From Paracoccaceae bacterium (GTDB lineage Bacteria; Pseudomonadota; Alphaproteobacteria; Rhodobacterales; Rhodobacteraceae), in NCBI GenBank assembly GCA_003511785.1, contig DOIS01000154.1:1-36279 (forward strand): DNA of 36,279 nt. Direction: 5' to 3'. Position 1 is the stretch's first letter. Every line of letters begins with the position of its first letter. This document shows, in pieces, positions 3,538 through 36,279 of the stretch. The position numbers were made by a program, and so were the translations under genes. The notes under the pieces were generated by a model. The model did not search any database, was not told where the DNA came from, and saw only the letters and a program-made list of their open reading frames with translations.

Positions 3538-4131
3538 CTATTCGGCCGGATGCCGCTGCCCCTGCGGCGCGCCCAGCAGCCGCTCGGGCAGCGCGAAGGC
3601 CACGGCGACGAAGCCCAGCCCCAGCACGATGCCCAGCAGATCGCCCGGCAGCCCGGTCAGGCCCGGGTAGTCGGCGCCGGGGACCATGCCCAGGGTGGTC
3701 TTGCCGCCGGCGATGTTCTCCAGCAGCCCCGAGGCCACCCAGGCCGGGTACGTCACCATGTAGGCGGCCGCGCCCAAGAGCCCGCCGGCGATGAAGAACA
3801 GCGCGTCATGGCGCCCCGAGGCGGCGGCGACCACGCCGGTGCCCGGGCAGAACCCGGCCAGCGCCCAGCCCGCGCCCAGCATCACGCCGCCGATGAAGAC
3901 GCCGATATAGGCCGCCTTGACCGACATGTGCCCCACATCCACGAGGCCGATCATCTGGCCCGCGAACATCAGCACCGAGCCCACGCCGATGGCCAGCAGG
4001 ATGGTCTTGGCCAGGCCCAGCGCCTTGAGGCTGAGCATCCACCCGATGATCGAGGGGTCCGAGGCACCGATCCGGTCCAGCACGGCGCCGAAGGCCATGC
4101 CGATGACGATGGCGAGAAGAATGGTGGTCAT
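3538..4131 (-). CDS. YeeE/YedE-family (sulfur-compound transport-like) membrane protein
   Basis: Intact 197-aa, highly hydrophobic ORF with a GFCPGTG motif. It starts 3 nt after the paralogous upstream gene. Confidence 0.8.
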   Translation of the reverse strand: MTTILLAIVIGMAFGAVLDRIGASDPSIIGWMLSLKALGLAKTILLAIGVGSVLMFAGQMIGLVDVGHMSVKAAYIGVFIGGVMLGAGWALAGFCPGTGVVAAASGRHDALFFIAGGLLGAAAYMVTYPAWVASGLLENIAGGKTTLGMVPGADYPGLTGLPGDLLGIVLGLGFVAVAFALPERLLGAPQGQRHPAE

Positions 4132-24362: not shown

Positions 24363-24513
24363 GGCACACCGGACGCGCGCCGGGCGTGCCGGACCCGCGC
24401 CTTGGCGCGGGGGCGCAAAATATGTGATCCTTTGATGACATGGGCGCGCCAACCCACTATGTGGGGGCTGTCGCCCGAGTCTGACCCCGGAGCCGCCCTT
24501 GCCCGCGCCGCTT

Positions 24514-25974
24514 ATGCCCCCCGCCCATCCCTTCGACGACGACAAGCTGCGCGAGGAATGCGGCGTGTTCGGCGTGGTCGGCGTCACCGACGCCGCCAAT
24601 TTCGTGGCCCTCGGCCTGCACGCGCTGCAACATCGCGGCCAGGAGGCGGGCGGGATCGTCACCTATGACGCCGAACACGGGTTCAACAGCGCCCGGCGCT
24701 TCGGCTATGTGCGCGACAACTTCACCTCGTCCAGCGTGATGGACACCCTGCCCGGCGCGCTGGGCATCGGGCATGTGCGCTATTCCACCGCCGGGTCCAA
24801 GGGGCCGACGCAGATCCGCGACGTGCAGCCCTTCTTCGGCGAGTTCTCGATGGGTGGCGCGGCGATTGCCCATAACGGCAACATCACCAATGCCGAGGCG
24901 CTGCGCCGCGAGTTGATCGAGCGCGGTTCGATCTTTCAATCCTCCAGCGACAGCGAATGCATCATCCACCTGATGGCGCGTTCGCTGCAACGCAACATCC
25001 CCGAGCGGATGGAGGACGCGCTGCGCCGGGTCGAGGGGGCGTTTTCCGTGGTCGCCATGACCCGCACCAAGCTGATCGGCGTGCGCGACCCGATGGGGGT
25101 GCGGCCGCTGGTGCTGGGCCAGCTGGGCGATGGCTGGGTGCTGTCGTCCGAGACCTGCGCGCTCGACATCATCGGGGCCGAGTTCCTGCGCGAGATCGCG
25201 CCCGGCGAGATGGTGGTGATCACCGCCGAGAAGGGCGTCGAGAGCCTGTTTCCCTTCCGCCCGCAGCCCTCGAAATTCTGCGTCTTCGAACATGTCTATT
25301 TCTCGCGTCCCGATTCGATCCTGGGCGGGCGGTCGGTTTACGAGACGCGCGAGAATATCGGTCGCGAGCTGGCCAAGGAGGCCCCGGTCGAGGCCGACCT
25401 GGTCTGCCCCGTGCCCGACAGCGGCACGCCCGCGGCGATCGGCTATTCGCTGGAGAGTGGCATTCCCTATGCCATGGGGATCATCCGCAACCAGTATATG
25501 GGCCGCACCTTCATCGAGCCGACCGAGCAGATCCGCAACATGGGCGTGCGGCTGAAACTGAACGTGAACCGCGCGCTCATCCGCGGCAAGCGGGTGATCC
25601 TGGTGGACGATTCGGTGGTGCGCGGCACCACCTCGCGCAAGATCAAGGAGATGATCCTGGACGCGGGCGCCAAGGAAGTGCATTTCCGCATCGCCTCTCC
25701 GCCCACGGCCTGGCCGTGCTTTTACGGCGTGGACACGCCGCAGCGCGAGAAACTGCTGGCCGCCACCATGTCCGAGGACGAGATGCGCGAACACCTCGCG
25801 GTGGACAGCTTGAAATTCATCTCGCTCGAAGGGCTCTATCGCGCCGTGGGCGAGGCGCAGGGCCGCGATGCCAAATGCCCGCAATACTGCGACGCCTGCT
25901 TCTCGGGCGAGTATCCGGTGGCGCCCTCGGACCAGATCCACAAGGGCTTCCAACTCAAGACCGCCGCCGAATAG
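24514..25974 (+). CDS. purF: Amidophosphoribosyltransferase
   Basis: Ntn catalytic Cys context ECGVFGV and PRPP motif VILVDDSVVRGTT. The C-terminal Cys cluster CxxxxxxCDAC suggests a 4Fe-4S type. ATG at 24514; an in-frame TTG at 24499 is an alternative start. Confidence 0.93.
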   Translation: MPPAHPFDDDKLREECGVFGVVGVTDAANFVALGLHALQHRGQEAGGIVTYDAEHGFNSARRFGYVRDNFTSSSVMDTLPGALGIGHVRYSTAGSKGPTQIRDVQPFFGEFSMGGAAIAHNGNITNAEALRRELIERGSIFQSSSDSECIIHLMARSLQRNIPERMEDALRRVEGAFSVVAMTRTKLIGVRDPMGVRPLVLGQLGDGWVLSSETCALDIIGAEFLREIAPGEMVVITAEKGVESLFPFRPQPSKFCVFEHVYFSRPDSILGGRSVYETRENIGRELAKEAPVEADLVCPVPDSGTPAAIGYSLESGIPYAMGIIRNQYMGRTFIEPTEQIRNMGVRLKLNVNRALIRGKRVILVDDSVVRGTTSRKIKEMILDAGAKEVHFRIASPPTAWPCFYGVDTPQREKLLAATMSEDEMREHLAVDSLKFISLEGLYRAVGEAQGRDAKCPQYCDACFSGEYPVAPSDQIHKGFQLKTAAE

Positions 25975-28643: not shown

Positions 28644-29582
28644 TCAGGCGCGGGTGCGACGCAGGGCCATGAAAGGGAGCGCGGGGGCGGCCTCCTCGTC
28701 CTCCGTCCCGGTGCTGCGCCCGAACTGGTCCCAGAGCAGAACCAGCCCGCTTGAGATCACGATGGTCACACCCAGATAGGTGGCCGCGCCGGGATATTCC
28801 CCGAAGCCCACCGCGCCGATCACCACCATCCAGACGAATTGCAGGTTCATCAGCGGCGTGACCGCATAGGCCGCCAGAAGCCGCAGCGCCACCACCACCA
28901 GCCAGCGCGCCAGGAACAGCAGACCGGCATAGGCCGCGACCCAGCCCAGGTCCGCCAGCGGCATCGGTTTCCACACGAAAGGCAGCGCGCAAGCCATGGT
29001 CAGGCACAACGCCAGGTTGGGATAGAACACCTGCGCCAGCGAATTGTTTTCGACCCGCCCGATATAGCGCGATGCAATCATGGAGAGAGTGCCCGTCACC
29101 GCCGCCGCGAAGGCGAAAAGGTGCCCGATCTGGATCGACCGGATGCCGGCGGGAAACAGGAAGGCGACGCCCACGAACCCCGCCACCAGCGCCAGCCAGG
29201 CCATCGGGCGCACATGCTCGTCCAGGATCAGCCCCGAGAAGATCCCCGCCAGGATCGGGATCATGCCGATGAACAGGAACACCTCGGCAAAGGGGAGATA
29301 GCGAAAGGCGTAGAAAAAGCAGATCGCCGCCATCACCGTGAACAGGCTGCGCAGCGCCATCGCCTTGGGACAGCGCGTTTTCAGCCCCCGGCGCTGGCCC
29401 GGATACCGGTCGGTGAGGGCGGCCAGCGTAAGCACGATCAGCCCCGACAGCGCATAAAGCTGCGGCGCCGCATAGCCGCCTGCGATCAGCTTGGTGATCG
29501 CATCGGCCGAGGAAATGAACACCGTGTAAAGCACGGCCAGCCCCGCGCCCAAGCCCGCCGTGCGAATACCGCTCGTGATCAT
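28644..29582 (-). CDS. EamA/DMT-superfamily transporter, last gene of the repeat-peptide operon
   Basis: 312-aa ORF with about 10 hydrophobic segments in two halves. Its ATG overlaps the stop of the upstream 358-aa gene (ATGA at 29579-29582). Confidence 0.8.
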   Translation of the reverse strand: MITSGIRTAGLGAGLAVLYTVFISSADAITKLIAGGYAAPQLYALSGLIVLTLAALTDRYPGQRRGLKTRCPKAMALRSLFTVMAAICFFYAFRYLPFAEVFLFIGMIPILAGIFSGLILDEHVRPMAWLALVAGFVGVAFLFPAGIRSIQIGHLFAFAAAVTGTLSMIASRYIGRVENNSLAQVFYPNLALCLTMACALPFVWKPMPLADLGWVAAYAGLLFLARWLVVVALRLLAAYAVTPLMNLQFVWMVVIGAVGFGEYPGAATYLGVTIVISSGLVLLWDQFGRSTGTEDEEAAPALPFMALRRTRA

Positions 29583-30655
29583 AGTGCAACCCCCCGCAAC
29601 CCGGTCCGGGCGAAGCCTGCGAAGAAGGCGTCGAAAAGATCGGTGCTTTGTTCCGCTTCGGTCAAAATGTCATTTCCGATTTCACTCAGAGATTGTTTTA
29701 TCACCGTTCTCATCGCCTGCCAATCCCCGCTCCGGTTGTCTTCCATGCGGAACATACACTCGGACATCTCGCGCAGCGGCGCGGCATAGGGATCGGCGCG
29801 GAAGAAGCCCATGCGCTCGGGCGCGGCCTCCTTGACGAAGGCATCGCGCCCCGCCGTGGCCATCAGCCAGTTGCACACGAAATAGTCGTGGTAGTCGTCC
29901 TGGGTCGAGACCTGCGGCCCTGTCTGCACCTGGAAACGATGCGTCTCGCGCTCCAGCCAGCCTTCCCAGATCACCGACGGCTCGGCCCCGGCATAGCGCA
30001 GCGCGATGCAGATCTCGGCCAGGAGGTCGGAATTCTGGTCGAGATAGGCCAGGATCCCCGCGAATTCGAGGCTGCGGATCGCCGCCGGCGACAGGCCCGG
30101 GTCGCGCCGGCCGTATTCGGAAAGGTAGAAGACGATATGGGTCAGCTCATAGGCCGCCTTCTTGTTGGGCATGGCGAAGGTCTCCGAGCGGTCCATGAAC
30201 CCGTGCAGCCGCTCGGTCAGCCCGGTATCCTCGGGCAGCGGATCGACGCCCCGGCGCAACATCAGCCGCCGCGCCTCGGCCCGTTGCAGGTCGCTGAGTT
30301 CCGCATCGGCCAGCCCCTCGCGGGCGATCCAATGCGCCAGCGCCTCACCCTTCGCGCCCGGCATCCCCAGATCCTCGAGGTCGAGGCAGATCGACAGCAG
30401 GAAGCGGTAGTATTGCGGGAAGAAGCCCAGGCGTTTCTCGATCTGGGCATAGAACCCCTCATGCACCGACAGCGCGCCATCGTCGAGCGCCAGCCCGGTG
30501 CATTCCAGGATGTTGAGCAGTTCGGCATTCTCCTTGAGCCAGAACACGTCGTCGCCGAAGCGGCGGGACTGCGCGAAACTGGCCATCAGGGCCGCGCGCC
30601 GGGCCGGGTGGCCCAGGCGGTGGGACGGAACGTTCAGATGAATGACATTCGACAT
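29579..30655 (-). CDS. Uncharacterised 358-aa cytoplasmic protein; candidate maturation enzyme for the adjacent SSCS-repeat peptide
   Basis: Intact ORF with high GC3 and an AAGGG SD. It starts 67 nt downstream of the repeat-peptide stop. No signal peptide or TM segment. His/Asp/Glu-containing patches SVHEGFY, AYELTHIVFYLSEYG and DDYHDYFVCNW are present. I recognised no family. Confidence 0.7.
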   Translation of the reverse strand: MSNVIHLNVPSHRLGHPARRAALMASFAQSRRFGDDVFWLKENAELLNILECTGLALDDGALSVHEGFYAQIEKRLGFFPQYYRFLLSICLDLEDLGMPGAKGEALAHWIAREGLADAELSDLQRAEARRLMLRRGVDPLPEDTGLTERLHGFMDRSETFAMPNKKAAYELTHIVFYLSEYGRRDPGLSPAAIRSLEFAGILAYLDQNSDLLAEICIALRYAGAEPSVIWEGWLERETHRFQVQTGPQVSTQDDYHDYFVCNWLMATAGRDAFVKEAAPERMGFFRADPYAAPLREMSECMFRMEDNRSGDWQAMRTVIKQSLSEIGNDILTEAEQSTDLFDAFFAGFARTGLRGVAL

Positions 30656-30722
30656 GGGTGTGCCCTTTCAAATGGCGCCTTCTGAACGCCCCGTATCCAA
30701 CTTCAGCCGCGAGAGGGCCGGA

Positions 30723-31388
30723 TCAGCTGCACGAGCTGACCATCTGGGTGCCGTCGCCCTTCAGGATCGCCTGGCCCGAGGGGGTCGAGCAGGACGACAC
30801 CATCTGCACGCCCTCGCCGGTGGCCGCGTCGCTTCCGCCGGTGACCGAGCAGGACGAGAACAGCTCGACCGAGCAGGACGAGAACATTTCGGTCGCCTCA
30901 CCGCTGGCGGTGGCGGTGCCGGCCGGGGTCGAGCAGGAGGACACCATGTGCACGCCGTCGCCCGTGGCCGCGTCGCCGCCCCCGGTGACCGAGCATGAGG
31001 AGAACAGCTCGACCGAGCAGGACGAGAACATCTCGGTCGCCTCGCCCGCCGTCGTGGCGGTCCCGGCCGGGGTCGAGCAGGACGAGAACATCTGCACCAG
31101 CTCGCCGCGCATCGCCGTGGTCTCCCGCGAGGGCGTCGAACAGGACGAGAACATCTCGACCCCGCCGCCGGTCATGCCATCGGCACCCGCCGTGGTCGAG
31201 CAGGAGGAGAACAGTTCCACCGAGCAGGACGAGAACATCTCGGACGCGTCGCCTGAATGAGCATCGAACAGGGCCTGGGGCTGCGAGCAGGAGGAAAACA
31301 TGGCCGTGCCCTCGCCGTCGAACAGGCTGGCGGCGCCGTTGCTGGTGGCGGTTGCGGCGATGTCGTAAACTTTGCGTTGAGCGTTCAT
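30723..31388 (-). CDS. Repeat peptide with 12 copies of [M/L][F/V]SSCS; candidate multi-core precursor peptide
   Basis: ATG at 31388 with a GGGAAAG SD 6 nt upstream; 221 aa. A 29-aa Cys-free N-terminal region is followed by 6 MFSSCS, 3 LFSSCS and 3 MVSSCS copies. Spacers are VE (3 times) or 14-15 aa rich in G/T/A/D/E (8 times). The stop follows the last copy directly. The motif is kept across different Ser codon families (TCN versus AGC). Confidence 0.75.
   Translation of the reverse strand: MNAQRKVYDIAATATSNGAASLFDGEGTAMFSSCSQPQALFDAHSGDASEMFSSCSVELFSSCSTTAGADGMTGGGVEMFSSCSTPSRETTAMRGELVQMFSSCSTPAGTATTAGEATEMFSSCSVELFSSCSVTGGGDAATGDGVHMVSSCSTPAGTATASGEATEMFSSCSVELFSSCSVTGGSDAATGEGVQMVSSCSTPSGQAILKGDGTQMVSSCS
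30726..31301 (-). repeat. Array of twelve 18-nt coding repeats (mostly atgttctcgtcctgctcg)
   Basis: Read directly in the sequence. On the plus strand it appears as cgagcaggacgagaacat. Confidence 0.9.
30789..31076 (-). repeat. Two tandem 144-bp (48-aa) higher-order units inside the repeat-peptide gene
   Basis: TPAGTATTAGEATEMFSSCSVELFSSCSVTGGGDAATGDGVHMVSSCS versus TPAGTATASGEATEMFSSCSVELFSSCSVTGGSDAATGEGVQMVSSCS. A third, more diverged 49-aa unit lies upstream. Confidence 0.85.
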
Positions 31389-31466
31389 GGCAGTCTTTCC
31401 CGTTGTGAAGTTGATCGCCCCATCACGCTTGCACCCATAAGATGAGTTGCAAAGATTTTTTTCGTG

Positions 31467-31741: not shown

Positions 31742-32521
31742 ATGAAAATCGCCAGTTTCAACATCAACGGCATCAAGGCCCGCGCCCAGGCGCTGACCGA
31801 CTGGCTGGCCGAGGCGCAGCCCGACGTGGCGCTGCTGCAAGAGATCAAGTCGGTGGACGAAAACTTCCCCCGCGAGATCTTCGAGGACATGGGCTACAAC
31901 GTGGAAACCCACGGGCAGAAGGGGTTCAACGGGGTGGCGATCCTGTCAAAACTGCCGCTCGAGGATGTGCGCCGCGGCCTGCCCGGCGACGCCGACGACA
32001 CCCAGGCGCGCTGGATCGAGGCCACGGTGGTGGGCGATCGCGCGCTCCGGCTCTGCGGGCTCTACCTGCCCAATGGCAACCCGGTGCCGGGGCCGAAATA
32101 CGACTACAAGCTCGCCTGGATGGAGCGCCTGCGCGCCCGTGCCGCCGATCTGCTGGCGGCCGAGGAGCCCGCGCTGATGGCGGGCGACTACAACGTGATC
32201 CCGCAGCCCGAGGACGCCAAGCACCCCGAGAAATGGACGAAGGACGCGCTGTTCCTGCCCGACAGCCGCGCCGCCTTCCAGCGCATCGTCAATCTCGGCT
32301 TCACCGACGCCTTCCGCGCCCGTGTGCAGGGGCCGGGGCATTACACCTTCTGGGATTACCAGGCCGGGTCGTGGAACCGCAATAACGGCATCCGCATCGA
32401 CCATTTCCTGCTCACGCCGCAATGCGCCGACCTGCTGGTGGATGTGGGCATCGACGCCGAGATCCGGGGCCGAGAGAAACCCTCAGATCACGTCCCCATC
32501 TGGGTCGAACTGGACATCTAG
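31742..32521 (+). CDS. xthA: Exodeoxyribonuclease III
   Basis: MKIASFNINGI, LLQEIK and C-terminal SDHVPIWVELD motifs of the ExoIII/APE family; 259 aa. Confidence 0.93.
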   Translation: MKIASFNINGIKARAQALTDWLAEAQPDVALLQEIKSVDENFPREIFEDMGYNVETHGQKGFNGVAILSKLPLEDVRRGLPGDADDTQARWIEATVVGDRALRLCGLYLPNGNPVPGPKYDYKLAWMERLRARAADLLAAEEPALMAGDYNVIPQPEDAKHPEKWTKDALFLPDSRAAFQRIVNLGFTDAFRARVQGPGHYTFWDYQAGSWNRNNGIRIDHFLLTPQCADLLVDVGIDAEIRGREKPSDHVPIWVELDI

Positions 32522-32581: not shown

Positions 32582-32878
32582 TTACAACCCGCCACACCCC
32601 GCCGTCCGCCGCACCAGCGCCGCCAACACCGTCTCGAAACAGGCGCAATAGTCCAGGTCGTCGAAGCCCGGCTCGGGCGGCAAGGCCCGCTTGCGCGCCG
32701 CCCCCATGAGCGAGCCGTTGCCCCAGAGCGGATGCGGCCGCCCGGTGCGGTCCATGTGCCGATGCGCGGCCTCTGCCTCCGCCAGCATCCGCGCGCAGAG
32801 CCTCTCGCGCTGGTCCGGAGCGGCGCGCAGCAACACCCGCGCCGCGCTGCTCACGTCGCCATACAGCAGCCGCCGCAT
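32582..32878 (-). CDS. Small hypothetical protein (98 aa) translationally coupled to the GTA orfg15-like gene
   Basis: Its ATG overlaps the upstream stop (TGATG at 32876-32880). High GC3. Sequence begins MRRLLYGDVSSAARVLLRAAPDQRERL. No family recognised. Confidence 0.55.
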   Translation of the reverse strand: MRRLLYGDVSSAARVLLRAAPDQRERLCARMLAEAEAAHRHMDRTGRPHPLWGNGSLMGAARKRALPPEPGFDDLDYCACFETVLAALVRRTAGCGGL

Positions 32879-35800
32879 CACGCGCCCGCAGGCCAGTCGA
32901 GCCGCGCGAAAGGCCCCGGCCCATAGCGCGCCGAGACCTGCGCCACCTCGATCACGCAGCCCGGGCCCGCCCCGTCGCCCCCCTGCGCGCCCGCGCCATA
33001 GCTCCATTCCGGCGCCTCCACGTAGGCCTCGCGCAGCACCCGCGCCCCCTCGCGCACCCGCACCAGATAGCGTTCGCGCTCCTCGCCCAGCGGCACCTCG
33101 TCCAGATCCCAGCTGTCCCCGTCGATCCGCGTGCGCCGGACCCAGCTCAGCGCCAGGTCGCCGCCCTGATCCTGCGCGCGCAGGTGACAGGGCGCATAGG
33201 GGCGCAGCCCGTTGCCGTCGAAGGCCGCCACCAGATGCGTATAGGATGGATCGCTCACCGCCCTCCGCGCCGGGCCGATCCGGTAGTGCCGCGCCACCCG
33301 CCGCTGCGCCGGGCTCAGCCCGATCTGCTCCGGCACCCCGTCGAGCAGGACGAAGAACGACCCCTCCGGCCAGACCGGCGGCATGATCCCGTCGCTGCCC
33401 GCCTGCCCGCGCAGGCGCTCCGAGATCAGGTAGGTATCGGGCGCCACCAGTTCCGCCTGCCGGAATTGGATCAGCTCCCAGTTGCCCGGGCTGCCGTCGC
33501 CCACGGCGGCCAGGTTGGCCCCGTTCAGCACCGCCGCGCGCGGCCGACTCTCCAACGCCCCCGACAGCATCCGCACCTGCACCGGCCCGCCCGCGTCCCA
33601 GCGCCCCGCCGGGGCGGCGGCCAACGGCGTCTCAAGCACCCCGACCGTCGCCCGCGCCGCGATCACCTCGGTCAGAGCATAATCCGAATCCGTGTTCGAT
33701 CCGTAAACAGCCACCGATCCGGGCCAGGGCGTGCCCGTCACCGCCAGGTGCGGCGCGTGCGCCACCTCGTCCCCGCGCATCAACGGCAGGTCCAGGAACA
33801 ACGGCAGCACCGGCACCGGCGCAGCGAAGGCACGCGGGCTGGGCGCGTCCTCGGGCCCCTCCGAGGGCACATAGACCGCCGGTTCGATCCGCACCGCCTC
33901 GACCAGTTGCAGATCGGCCTGGTCCACCCGGTCGATGCGATAGCGCGTCTCGCCCCCCTCGCCCGGCAGCGCCACAACGTCGCCCGCGCCCAGCCCCATC
34001 GCCGAGGGCGGCAGGGCAAAGCGCGCCGTGTCGCGCGCCACCCGCGCCTCGGTCAGCCAGCGTTCGGCCACCGCGCGCCCCTCGCCCCGGCTCAGCGCCA
34101 GGGGCAACTCGCTGGTGGCCACCGCGTGGGTGGCATCCGAGGCCAGCACCGCCTCCTCGGCCACCGCCGCGTGATCGGCCTCCGCCTCGACGAAGCGCAG
34201 CCGTACCCGCCCCGAGCTTTCCGCCTCCGCCGCGCGCGACCGCTCCACGCGCCCCTCGGTCTCGCCCGAGACCGCCAGGCAGTCCGGGTCCAGCCGCACC
34301 GTCCCGCGCCCGTCGCGCGGGACGAAGCGCAACAACCCGTCGCGCTCCACCGCGTCGAAGCCATGCGCCAGCATCAGGGGCTGCAACGCCGCGCGCGCCT
34401 CGGCCACGTCTTCGACCGCATAGCCGCGCACCACCCCCGTCAACGCGCCGGTGTCGATCGCCTCCACGCCCGCCCGGCGGCAGATCTCGCCCACCACCGA
34501 GGCCAGCGCCCGCGTCCCCGTGCGCCCGTTGATCCAGTGACCGCGCGCGAAATTGGCCCCGTCGCTCCACAGGCCGCGATTGTTGGGAAACCACGGAAAC
34601 GGCCGCGCGTCCCAGGCCCAGACATAGGCGTTCTCCATGTCCACCATCGGCCCCTCGTAGACATCCGAGACCGGGTTGCGACCCGGGTCCCGCCAATAAC
34701 TCAGCATCACCTCCAGGTAACGCCGCTGGATCAGGTCGTCGCGCCGCCCGGTGGAATAGCGCGGCAGGGCCGATTCCGAGGATTTGGCGTCGAGGAACTT
34801 GTTGGGCTGGTTGGTGCCCTTGTCCACGGCGGCACAACCCAGCTCGGTGAACCAGATCGGTTTCGAGCGCGGCTCCCAGGCCGTCGGCACCGCCTGCCGC
34901 ACCCCGTCGATGCGCTCGTGATGGCGGTTCTCCCACCAGCCGCGCAGGTCCTTGAACCGCCAGACCCAGGGCTCGCCGTGCTCTCCGTCGGTGATCGGTT
35001 CGCGCCGCTGGACCGCCCGCGCCTCTCCACTGGGGTAATACCAATCGAACCCCTCGCCACCCTCGATATTGGCGGCGAGATAGGCGGGATCGTGGATCGC
35101 ACCCCAACCGGCATCCGCGTGGTCCTCCCCCTCGCGCCAATCCGACAGCGGCATGTAATTGTCGATCCCCACGAAGTCGATCTCGTCATCCGCCCAGAGC
35201 GGATCGAGATGGAAAAACCGGTCCCCCGGCACATCCACCGGCTGATAGCCGAAATACTCGCTCCAGTCGGCGGCATAGCCGATCTTCACATCCGGCCCCA
35301 GAAGTGCGCGCACCTCGCCCGCCAGCGCCCGCAACGCCTCGACCGCCGGGAACCCCGCCACCCCCCGGATCTGCGTGAGCCCCCGCATCTCGGAGCCGAT
35401 ACAGAAGGAGTCCACGCCCCCCGCAGCCGCGCAGAGCGCCGCGTAATGCAGGATGAAGCGCCGCATCCCCCATTCATTCGGCCCGTGGTAGCTCACCACC
35501 CCGTCGCCCACGGTGAAATCCGCTGCCCGCGCGGTGCCGAAAAACGCCGCCACCTGCGTGGCGGCCTCATCCGTGCCGTCGGGCGTGCCTGCGACCCCGG
35601 GCGCGAGCGAAGTGGTGATCCGCCCCCGCCAGGGCAGCGCCGGCTGGCCCGCCTCGCCGGTCCAGGGGTTCACCAACCCGTTGCCCGCCATCTGGTCCAT
35701 CAGGATGAAGGGATAGAACATCACCCGCTTGCCCGCCGCCGCCATGTGCCGGATCGCCTCGACCACCGCCGCGTCGGCCGGCGTGCCGCCATAGATCGGC

Positions 35801-36279
35801 CGCCCGTCCGCGTCCTCCTCGATCTGGTCGGCGCCCGCCCGCGTCAGCCCCGCGACCGACCAGGGCATGTTGGACCCTTCCACATCGTGCTTTTCCATCT
35901 TGGGCACCAGCAGGCACTGCCCGCAGCGCAGATCGCCCCCGAACCACGACACCACCAGCGAGACCGCCTCGCAGGACGGCAACTCCCCCTCCAGCGCCTC
36001 GAAGGAGGTGACGAAATCGCTCTTGCCCGAGGGCGAATTGACATTGGCCGCCCAGCGGCTGCCGACCCCGTCAGTGAGGTAAACCGGCGTCGTGGCCAGG
36101 CTGTATTCGCCGGTGCCGGGCATCAACGCCACGCCGCGCACCGCCTGGGCCAGGTCGTGCGCATGATCCGGCGCGCCGGGCTGGGCCGCGCGCACCACCT
36201 CGAAGGAGAATTGCGGCACCCGGTTGCCATAGGGTTCCAGCGACAGGGTCTCCATCACCACATAGGCCGTGCCGCGATA
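32878..36279 (-). CDS. GTA (gene transfer agent) host-specificity/tail protein, orfg15-like; N-terminus lies outside the window
   Basis: The frame is open to the window edge (..YRGTAYVVMETLSLEPYGNRVPQFSFEVVR..). GNRVPQFxFEV, followed by a TIM-barrel-like region and a long C-terminal tail domain, is characteristic of the about 1300-aa last gene of RcGTA-type clusters. Confidence 0.8.
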   Translation of the reverse strand, partial: YRGTAYVVMETLSLEPYGNRVPQFSFEVVRAAQPGAPDHAHDLAQAVRGVALMPGTGEYSLATTPVYLTDGVGSRWAANVNSPSGKSDFVTSFEALEGELPSCEAVSLVVSWFGGDLRCGQCLLVPKMEKHDVEGSNMPWSVAGLTRAGADQIEEDADGRPIYGGTPADAAVVEAIRHMAAAGKRVMFYPFILMDQMAGNGLVNPWTGEAGQPALPWRGRITTSLAPGVAGTPDGTDEAATQVAAFFGTARAADFTVGDGVVSYHGPNEWGMRRFILHYAALCAAAGGVDSFCIGSEMRGLTQIRGVAGFPAVEALRALAGEVRALLGPDVKIGYAADWSEYFGYQPVDVPGDRFFHLDPLWADDEIDFVGIDNYMPLSDWREGEDHADAGWGAIHDPAYLAANIEGGEGFDWYYPSGEARAVQRREPITDGEHGEPWVWRFKDLRGWWENRHHERIDGVRQAVPTAWEPRSKPIWFTELGCAAVDKGTNQPNKFLDAKSSESALPRYSTGRRDDLIQRRYLEVMLSYWRDPGRNPVSDVYEGPMVDMENAYVWAWDARPFPWFPNNRGLWSDGANFARGHWINGRTGTRALASVVGEICRRAGVEAIDTGALTGVVRGYAVEDVAEARAALQPLMLAHGFDAVERDGLLRFVPRDGRGTVRLDPDCLAVSGETEGRVERSRAAEAESSGRVRLRFVEAEADHAAVAEEAVLASDATHAVATSELPLALSRGEGRAVAERWLTEARVARDTARFALPPSAMGLGAGDVVALPGEGGETRYRIDRVDQADLQLVEAVRIEPAVYVPSEGPEDAPSPRAFAAPVPVLPLFLDLPLMRGDEVAHAPHLAVTGTPWPGSVAVYGSNTDSDYALTEVIAARATVGVLETPLAAAPAGRWDAGGPVQVRMLSGALESRPRAAVLNGANLAAVGDGSPGNWELIQFRQAELVAPDTYLISERLRGQAGSDGIMPPVWPEGSFFVLLDGVPEQIGLSPAQRRVARHYRIGPARRAVSDPSYTHLVAAFDGNGLRPYAPCHLRAQDQGGDLALSWVRRTRIDGDSWDLDEVPLGEERERYLVRVREGARVLREAYVEAPEWSYGAGAQGGDGAGPGCVIEVAQVSARYGPGPFARLDWPAGA

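Follow-up and report, generated by a model that had tools for sequence, protein, structure and literature searches.

A repeat peptide paired with a DUF6902 protein in Rhodobacterales: a candidate multi-core RiPP-like locus

Multi-core precursors of RiPPs (peptides that are synthesised ribosomally and then modified post-translationally) are known from the cyanobactins (PatE-type), the microviridins, the thiovarsolins, the fungal dikaritins/ustiloxins and the plant lyciumins/burpitides, and have in common a leader, several near-identical short cores, conserved flanks and a copy number that varies between strains. Here we analyse a gene pair of the same outline, a repeat-peptide gene followed by the gene of a 358-residue DUF6902 protein, on the minus strand of contig DOIS01000154.1 of a Paracoccaceae bacterium (assembly GCA_003511785.1, positions 1 to 36,279); this whole stretch of 36,279 nucleotides is referred to as the window. 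Judged by sequence comparison, the locus appears to work like a multi-core RiPP locus but fits no described class, and is a candidate for a new one. The core sequences of the known multi-core precursors are unrelated to those found here, and whereas those precursors belong to sporadic clusters, the cassette of the window is vertically inherited. None of PatA/PatG, ATP-grasp ligases, YcaO/TfuA, UstYa/DUF3328 and BURP was found among the neighbouring genes with Pfam and NCBIfam, and LanB/C/M/KC, PatA/G and YcaO were absent both from the open reading frames (ORFs) scanned between 22071 and 36261 and from the called genes of the related loci L081-L094 (related loci are numbered L001-L094 throughout).

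For DUF6895, a second family matched by the 358-residue protein, the source is a title, according to which it is a family of lasso-peptide epimerase (Shi et al., ACS Catal. 2026, 16:1757, doi 10.1021/acscatal.5c08590; as listed among the references of PMC13352647 and PMC13453073). As far as this title goes, the two systems are alike in the DUF6895 match and in the position of the gene beside that of a ribosomal peptide; they differ in that the best, full-length family of the window protein is DUF6902, and in that its candidate substrate is a multi-core repeat rather than a single lasso core. Neither a lasso cyclase nor a leader peptidase was found among the neighbours xth, EamA, erpA, dGTPase, short-chain dehydrogenase/reductase (SDR) and purF.

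The features of the gene pair are as follows.

30723..31388, minus strand: repeat-peptide gene with ATG start, 221 residues, candidate multi-core precursor with 12 cores [ML][FV]SSCS
31302..31388, minus strand: candidate leader, the 29 N-terminal residues MNAQRKVYDIAATATSNGAASLFDGEGTA
30726..31301, minus strand: core array, 12 units with spacers of 14-15 residues or of 2 residues (VE)
Single repeat unit: GEATEMFSSCSVE or GEGTQMFSSGSAP
29579..30655, minus strand: 358-residue DUF6902 protein (Pfam match), cytoplasmic, candidate peptide-modifying enzyme

An initial annotation, made from the letters of the window alone, had described a 221-residue peptide in which a Cys-free, non-secretory N-terminus of 29 residues precedes 12 hexapeptides, set apart by VE or by 14-15 residues, with every Cys inside the motif and the stop right after the last copy. 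ORF and translation agree with this description throughout: the motifs comprise 6 MFSSCS, 3 LFSSCS and 3 MVSSCS, the stop codon lies immediately 3' of the 12th motif, all Cys residues (12/12) occupy position 5 of a copy, and the leader, as read from the translation, contains neither Cys nor a hydrophobic segment of signal-peptide type. The final ~9 leader residues resemble the flank of a repeat unit (DGEGTA). A switch of Ser codon family in the last copy, which the same annotation had taken as a sign of selection at the peptide level, is equally present, with AGC codons there (ATG GTC AGC TCG TGC AGC) and mostly TCN codons elsewhere (mostly ATG TTC TCG TCC TGC TCG). For the array, Tandem Repeats Finder reported a period of 144 nt with 2.2 copies and 88% matches; since the repetition is partly a recent DNA duplication, repetition within this single gene is weak evidence for selection.

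Relatives of the 358-residue protein were collected in a scan of one genome per species, yielding 307 loci, of which the best 80 (59-79% identity), labelled Rhodobacterales almost throughout, were inspected; motif statistics refer to 655 instances from 83 loci. In all 78 loci with enough flank (2 of the 80 lack upstream flank), DUF6902 is preceded on its own strand by an orthologous repeat ORF that ends 50-77 nt before it, so that the co-occurrence of repeat peptide and 358-residue protein, named as a check in the initial annotation, is seen in every assessable locus. Among divergent Rhodobacterales loci, L090 (LFTSAS) and L094 (MFTTSI) likewise combine a repeat ORF upstream of DUF6902 with xth/erpA synteny. 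The repeat ORF is predicted by gene callers in L081 and L094.

Across the 83 loci, the peptides are built from units of ~20 residues, A-P-x4-D-A-x2-G-[DE]-[GA]-[TV]-[EQ]-[ML]-F-[ST]-S-G-[SL], which end in the core [ML]-F-[ST]-S-G-[SL], mostly MFSSGS, and are present in 2-20 copies (median 8) in ORFs of 76-420 residues. Conservation extends beyond the core (G at -5 in 93%, D/E at -4 in 87%) and within it is strongest at F (96%), S (91%) and the G of position 5 (86%); ~25% of units have Leu or Ala for the Met of position 1. Spacers measure 14-15 residues in 517 cases and 2 residues in 47, the latter including doublets in Shimia (MFTSGL-VQ-MFTSGL) that match MFSSCS-VE-LFSSCS of the window; the A-P that follows the core in the family has been lost from the window array. 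In 77 of 83 loci the stop follows the last core directly, and across genera the ORF begins with the motif M-x-A-[QL]-x-K (MNAQRK, MTALRK, MSAQLK; MLAQKS in Shimia). Cores are mostly uniform within a genome and different between genomes (MFSSGS, MFTSGS, MFTSGL, MFTSAA, MFCSAS, MFTCGL, LFTTSL), with two core types in one locus in a few cases, for example L021 and L080. The repeat peptides of roseobacters have no signal peptide.

Selection on the peptide is apparent from the codons of the core. At codons 3-5, the entropy of the third positions amounts to 1.6-1.8 bits, as compared to 0.04-0.5 bits for positions one and two of codons 2, 4 and 5 and 1.08 bits for position one of codon 3, where Ser and Thr alternate; the 211 identical MFSSGS peptides are encoded with all TCN and also with AGY Ser codons. 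Because the peptide is retained in spite of free variation at third codon positions, the minus-strand frame 30723..31388 is, on this codon evidence, a real coding frame selected at the peptide level, and the corresponding claim of the initial annotation is upheld on the wider set. The window has a GC content of ~68% and long shadow ORFs on both strands, among them 30658..31260, 30642..30998 and 30995..31408 on the plus strand, which encode repetitive products of at most 200 residues (...EQDENIS...) opposite the repeat gene. As codon-position variation fits the minus-strand frame only, these plus-strand ORFs are taken to be shadows of the GC-rich repeat.

That the repeat gene itself is no gene at all, but an ORF that arose by chance in GC-rich, tandemly repeated DNA, could be argued from this base composition, from the partial 144-nt duplication, from the protein search, which returned no homologue, and from the missing entry of the exact sequences in the protein collection. 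We give this explanation practically no probability: the codon-position pattern is drawn from 655 motif instances, start, leader and stop position are conserved across genera, and the ORF is called in two relatives, by which it appears refuted as far as sequence evidence goes.

The 358-residue protein matches the Pfam family DUF6902 over its full length (E 3.6e-171, 569 bits) and DUF6895 over residues 28-229 (E 1.3e-23, 84.3 bits with a cut-off of 23.8; profile positions 19-233 of 289). Because the DUF6902 model fits far better (569 vs 84.3 bits), the protein is assigned by its profile scores to a sister family of DUF6895. DUF6902 comprises 179 clusters at 50% identity among 1.84 billion representatives, and in the source annotations its members are named only "DUF6902 family protein" or "hypothetical protein"; NCBIfam contains no model matching DUF6902. 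The AlphaFold2 model (mean predicted local distance difference test (pLDDT) 85, predicted template modelling score (pTM) 0.86) is all-helical with only two short strands. Foldseek searches of the model against PDB and BFVD gave no match at E < 0.001, and PDB sequence and profile searches with DUF6902 returned nothing related. The top PDB matches of the model, alpha/alpha-toroid domains (complement thioester domain, RabGGTase, transcobalamin), were discarded, being too weak to use at a TM score of ~0.3.

Ten residues, K41, E45, R84, Y169, H173, D210, E214, W230, Y255 and H256, are invariant in the alignments of both close and distant members, the residue mapping between the two being our own; T172 is invariant in the distant members and nearly so in the close ones. 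Such a set would suit acid/base catalysis.

Two general marks of a RiPP locus can be compared with these data. The precursor consists of a leader and cores (12 here, 2-20 in relatives) with conserved flanks, an architecture that suggests that the segments act as cores. A dedicated enzyme may be seen in DUF6902, which follows directly downstream in 78/78 loci and is homologous to DUF6895, its fold having no solved match; that it acts on the peptide, as well as the type of reaction, the cleavage and the export, is conjectured from this arrangement. Architecture, co-occurrence and the DUF6895 match together make a RiPP-like multi-core precursor the best reading of the locus. We consider it about evenly balanced whether the full reading holds, with DUF6902 acting on the cores of a multi-core precursor and a small product being exported. 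Of the earlier proposal of a multi-core precursor, RiPP-like or for a metallophore, the first half is thus supported by leader-plus-cores architecture, peptide-level selection and the pairing with DUF6902, and the metallophore half is not.

In terms of mechanism, the precursor would consist of a short leader (M-x-A-Q/L-x-K...) and 2-20 units of ~20 residues ending in [ML]-F-[ST]-S-G-[SL]; of this, architecture and selection are shown by the comparison of loci. DUF6902 would bind the units and modify a residue in or beside the core, as suggested by its invariable adjacency and the homology to DUF6895. By analogy with the reported lasso-peptide epimerase, the reaction could be an acid/base epimerisation at a C-alpha, possibly that of the near-invariant Phe or Ser, or another chemistry on the Ser/Thr/Cys-rich core. 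Spacers would be trimmed by general peptidases, the locus having no protease gene, and the many small modified peptides, or derivatives of them, might leave via the EamA transporter, in keeping with its 4-nt overlap with DUF6902 and its transporter class. A hairpin between the two genes might permit an excess of precursor.

A backbone cyclisation of X-Ser-Gly in the manner of 4-methylideneimidazole-5-one (MIO) or green fluorescent protein (GFP), considered on a resemblance of the triad, was dropped: several lineages have Ser, Ala or Cys in place of the Gly, and no other observation spoke for it.

Several points weigh against modification of a multi-core precursor by DUF6902. A protease gene is missing among the neighbours scanned, and so is a RiPP recognition element (winged-helix, PqqD-like), which many but not all classes use: DUF6902 has no Pfam match to PqqD/RRE, and its model is all-helical with two short strands. 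DUF6902 is a family separate from DUF6895 in Pfam, and as its fold matches nothing solved, even an enzymatic role is presumed. Expression, modification, cleavage and export of the peptide are predictions from sequence comparison. The adjacency of EamA could partly be inherited gene order, given the housekeeping synteny (xth, erpA, dGTPase, purF), and EamA is missing in ~7 loci. Moreover, the small ORFs upstream of three DUF6902 subfamilies, described below, are not demonstrably homologous to each other.

The remaining features of the cassette are the following.

28644..29582, minus strand: EamA/DMT (drug/metabolite transporter)-family transporter (Pfam EamA), 312 residues, candidate exporter of a small product
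30674..30690, minus strand: intergenic hairpin GGCGTT-CAGAA-GGCGCC followed by ATTTGAAA, weak, with 4 G-C and 2 G-U pairs

The ATG of the transporter gene overlaps the stop codon of DUF6902 by 4 nt in all three loci checked, the window, L081 and L082. EamA follows directly after DUF6902 in 71/80 loci, and in ~7 loci it is absent and erpA takes this place; because EamA can be missing, the minimal unit would be peptide plus DUF6902, with EamA dispensable to the pair. A precedent for peptides as carriers of residues of a small exported or diffusible molecule is given by pyrroloquinoline quinone (PQQ; precursor PqqA), mycofactocin and the pearlins, e.g. 3-thiaglutamate. This likeness agrees with a transporter of small-molecule type in the window, where a peptide ABC exporter is not the one encoded; in contrast to the multi-core peptide here, the precursors of these systems are single-copy, and a radical-SAM, PEARL/LanB-like or other known tailoring enzyme is absent here.

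In 58/73 related loci, a GC-rich hairpin with 5 bp or more occupies the same place between peptide and DUF6902, ~30-35 nt past the stop of the repeat ORF and often followed by ATTTGAAA. Its stems vary (GGCGTTC/GAACGCC, GGGGCGCG/CGCGCCCC, GGGCC/GGCCC), and support from folding is modest, with a mean z of -0.67 against shuffles in the related loci; the intergenic fold of the window itself is no better than shuffles, and the hairpin came to light only in the comparison with relatives. It may reasonably be regarded as a candidate partial terminator or mRNA stabiliser that would raise the ratio of precursor to enzyme. Consensus scans for sigma-70 promoters and terminators around the locus were uninformative.

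The conserved hairpin, followed by ATTTG, between ORF and DUF6902 could also be read in another way, namely that the repeat ORF, with its Met, Phe and Ser codons, is a regulatory leader that controls read-through of the hairpin into DUF6902-EamA after the fashion of an attenuator. The EamA family includes amino-acid exporters, with weak matches to YddG. We nevertheless hold this explanation to be exceedingly doubtful. Known attenuator leaders are short and carry runs of a single codon, whereas here ORFs of 76-420 residues are conserved over the whole unit, including the Gly and Asp/Glu positions far from the core; synonymous codons vary freely, which means that the peptide and not the codon content is selected; and the single hairpin lies 30-35 nt past the stop, with no alternative pairing found.

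More weight attaches to the alternative that the peptide functions at full length, as an intrinsically disordered acidic polymer rich in Ser, Thr, Gly and Ala (for example a scaffold, stress protectant or binding platform). DUF6902 would then partner, chaperone or modify it, and no small product would be released. The composition of the family would be apt, A, S, G and T accounting for 12-16% each in acidic peptides with next to no K/R and 0.7% Cys. The absence of a protease from the locus, the chromosomal and vertical inheritance of the cassette and the genomes that do without EamA also point in this direction. This remains an unlikely explanation in our judgement: the 6-residue core is sharply conserved while spacers and copy number (2-20) vary, which better fits repeated sites of recognition or modification, 77/83 loci have an ORF that stops precisely on a core, doublets with 2-residue spacers retain the core and lose the remaining unit, and in most genomes the translation of EamA is coupled to that of DUF6902.

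Returning to the precursor reading, the core of the window differs from that of the family in its Cys. In the closest relative found, L081, DUF6902 is 92% identical and the leader MNAQRKVYDIAATATS is shared (residues 1-16 are identical), and the cores are canonical MFSSGS-AP without Cys. The units of the two loci pair one-to-one, ADGMTGGGVEMFSSCS with ADGMTGNGVEMFSSGS and TTAMRGELVQMFSSCS with TTALTGELVQMFSSGS for example. By this alignment, MFSSCS is a lineage-specific variant with a change from Gly (GGC) to Cys (TGC) at position 5 in all 12 units, and the uniformity of the change, with individual spacers kept, points to homogenisation or to selection for uniform cores. Elsewhere, Cys is found at other core positions, as MFCSGS (L082-84, with DUF6902 87% identical), MFCSAS (Sedimentitalea arenosa), MFTCGL (Litorivita) and MFSTSC (Ruegeria aquimaris), its share at any motif position being only ~1-5% of units. 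The motif SSC[ST] occurs in 0 of the 80 related loci, and a metagenome scan with a 21-mer encoding MFSSCS gave just one match, which arose by chance in a gene of another kind. A search for the motif in relatives, as suggested in the initial annotation, thus recovers conserved related repeats, [ML]F[ST]SG[SL], and the exact SSCS nowhere else.

The emphasis of that annotation on Cys and on regular Met...Cys pairs does not carry over to the family, and with it goes its suggestion that the peptide binds a thiophilic metal such as Cu(I) or is a metallophore precursor, an explanation that we now rate as very improbable. The window peptide does contain 12 Cys and 9 motif Met in regular spacing, and core Cys has arisen independently in the other lineages just listed. 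Most family members, however, have none, with Gly in 86% at position 5 and Cys at 0.7% overall, the closest relative included, and the Met is exchanged for Leu or Ala in a quarter or so of the units (~25%). The copper RiPPs of MNIO/DUF692 systems (methanobactins, bufferins) have Cys-containing ribosomal peptides in common with the window, and bufferin precursors carry a Sec-type signal peptide, as does the small partner in a distant DUF6902 subfamily, whereas the roseobacter precursors have none. No MNIO/DUF692 enzyme or partner, copper chaperone or other metal gene was found among the neighbours scanned with Pfam, core Cys is limited to few lineages, and erpA (Fe-S insertion) is convergent and part of a conserved synteny.

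Outside Rhodobacterales, distant members with 25-38% identity also carry a small ORF directly upstream of DUF6902 (L085-L089, L091, L093), and all but one of the distant proteins scanned match Pfam DUF6895 as well. A small ORF followed by DUF6902 thus seems to be a family-wide rule, which fits an enzyme-substrate pair or another obligate two-component relation. In one subfamily, from low-GC marine contigs, three genes follow each other: one for a ~550-residue protein, one for an 89-94-residue protein with a signal peptide, and DUF6902.

L085:3018-6062: three-gene order
L087:2937-6044: three-gene order
L091:1902-5083: three-gene order
L093:935-3987: three-gene order

The ~550-residue protein of these four loci has no Pfam match and shows, by eye, a winged-helix-like N-terminus and a hydrophobic stretch. 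The 89-94-residue proteins have conserved segments F-Y-[QR]-G-[DH]-[FY] and [DE]-[LM]-Y-[TNK]-G, of which the second may be likened to the roseobacter core E-[ML]-[FY]-T-S-G.

Another subfamily (L086, L088, L089) has a peptide of 61-64 residues (DLLKLFVDAGVF...TPS....D...Y.F..K) just before or overlapping DUF6902. In L086:4791-6029 (Scandinavium sp., GCA_044900545.1), DUF6902 and a 61-residue peptide are cargo of a P2-like prophage between the tail genes gpS and gpV; this DUF6902 protein (P0302) gave no match in the phage collection, PHROGs or PADLOC. In L088:2229-5747 and L089:3577-5095, DUF6902 (P0237) overlaps the end of a 64-residue peptide gene, L089 having a second, paralogous 61-residue peptide gene upstream, and the pair is flanked by a retron-type reverse transcriptase (best PADLOC match RT_I-B) with two unknown genes, and by a resolvase, a setting that looks like a defence island or mobile element.

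From these distant pairs in a prophage and beside reverse transcriptase and resolvase, a two-gene conflict module (toxin/immunity, bacteriocin-like or phage defence) could be proposed, with the peptide as effector or trigger and DUF6902 as its activator or neutraliser. We find this distinctly improbable. The Rhodobacterales cassette is non-mobile: of the 307 loci, 80 were inspected, and almost all of these hold it at one and the same place between xth and erpA; DUF6902 and the enterobacterial small peptides match no PADLOC or PHROGs model, DUF6902 has no relatives in phage and plasmid collections, and the repeat peptide has no toxin-like features such as hydrophobic or cationic stretches.

The precursor-and-enzyme reading can be extended to a broader proposal, to which we assign somewhat less than an even chance. 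The locus would then represent a new RiPP class with a new enzyme family, in which DUF6902 modifies up to 20 M-F-S/T-S-G-S/L cores per precursor and the product is exported by EamA; the same family would act on unrelated small proteins in other Proteobacteria, prophage-borne ones included, and lineages such as that of the window would have re-tuned the product through an exchange of Gly for Cys in all cores. Since many genera have inherited the cassette vertically at one housekeeping position, this product would more probably be a physiological signal or cofactor of the clade than a sporadic antibiotic.

At least 307 species representatives carry the gene pair; the searches turned up neither a curated family for the peptide nor any literature on it, and the enzyme is known as a DUF only. 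When the window peptide and three canonical relatives were scanned with Pfam and NCBIfam, only sub-threshold noise appeared, a protein-database search with the repeat peptide gave no match at E <= 1e-3, and an exact look-up of 8 family members in a collection of 15 billion proteins found none. The repeat proteins seem to be missing from the protein collection or suppressed by composition filters, which says nothing on the rarity of the family. Literature searches, with subscription literature outside their reach, returned no paper on the motif strings, on DUF6902 or on RiPPs in combination with Rhodobacterales. Contigs end inside the repeat gene in L001, L017, L019, L033, L052, L073 and L082-L084, and L090 has a run of N at ~3700-3800; the repeats evidently break short-read assemblies. 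Because of these contig breaks and the lack of database matches, the family is under-represented in protein databases, and homology mining misses the repeat genes. Roseobacters rank with the most abundant and best-studied groups of marine bacteria, and carriers of the cassette include the genetically tractable Phaeobacter, Ruegeria and Shimia. If the RiPP reading is true, the pair would add one more precursor family to those known, assign a function to DUF6902 and widen the role of the DUF6895/DUF6902 superfamily, and its product would possibly be a widely conserved signalling or cofactor molecule.

Some repeat ORFs depart from the common form. A short basic tail follows the last core in a few, listed as L010, L015, L024, L026 and L007 (...LYTTSL-TPAVK, ...MFSSGL-ARTKG, ...MFCSAS-TPSSTVKGA), and in L007 the gap between repeat ORF and DUF6902 is unusually long, at 343 nt. 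L072:3669-3971 (Sedimentitalea sp. HM32M-2) has two cores followed by unrelated sequence and no EamA; the cassette may be decaying there. Granulosicoccus, Microbulbifer sp. S227A or Acidimicrobiales are the labels of a few DUF6902 loci or proteins, at 74-78% identity to roseobacter proteins and with the same synteny, for which mis-binning or contamination seems a likelier cause than lateral transfer.

The genes on either side of the cassette are the divergent xth (31742..32521) and the convergent erpA, the latter followed by dGTPase, SDR, purF and radA. The gene purF corresponds to the ORF with a GATase domain at 24499..25974 (TIGR01134, E 1.9e-148), the only gene with this domain nearby. With the xth/erpA position fixed in nearly all of the 80 loci, the Rhodobacterales cassette is chromosomal and vertically inherited within a housekeeping synteny. 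Beyond xth, the window encodes on the minus strand a 1127-residue protein of gene transfer agent (GTA) g15 type (32878..36261; Pfam GTA_TIM, Phage-tail_3, Rcc01698_C), followed by a DUF7742 gene (32582..33007). A link of the cassette to these adjacent GTA genes was dropped, as a g15 relative occurs in 0/80 loci within 4 kb either side of DUF6902; the junction of g15, xth and cassette looks specific to the lineage of the window.

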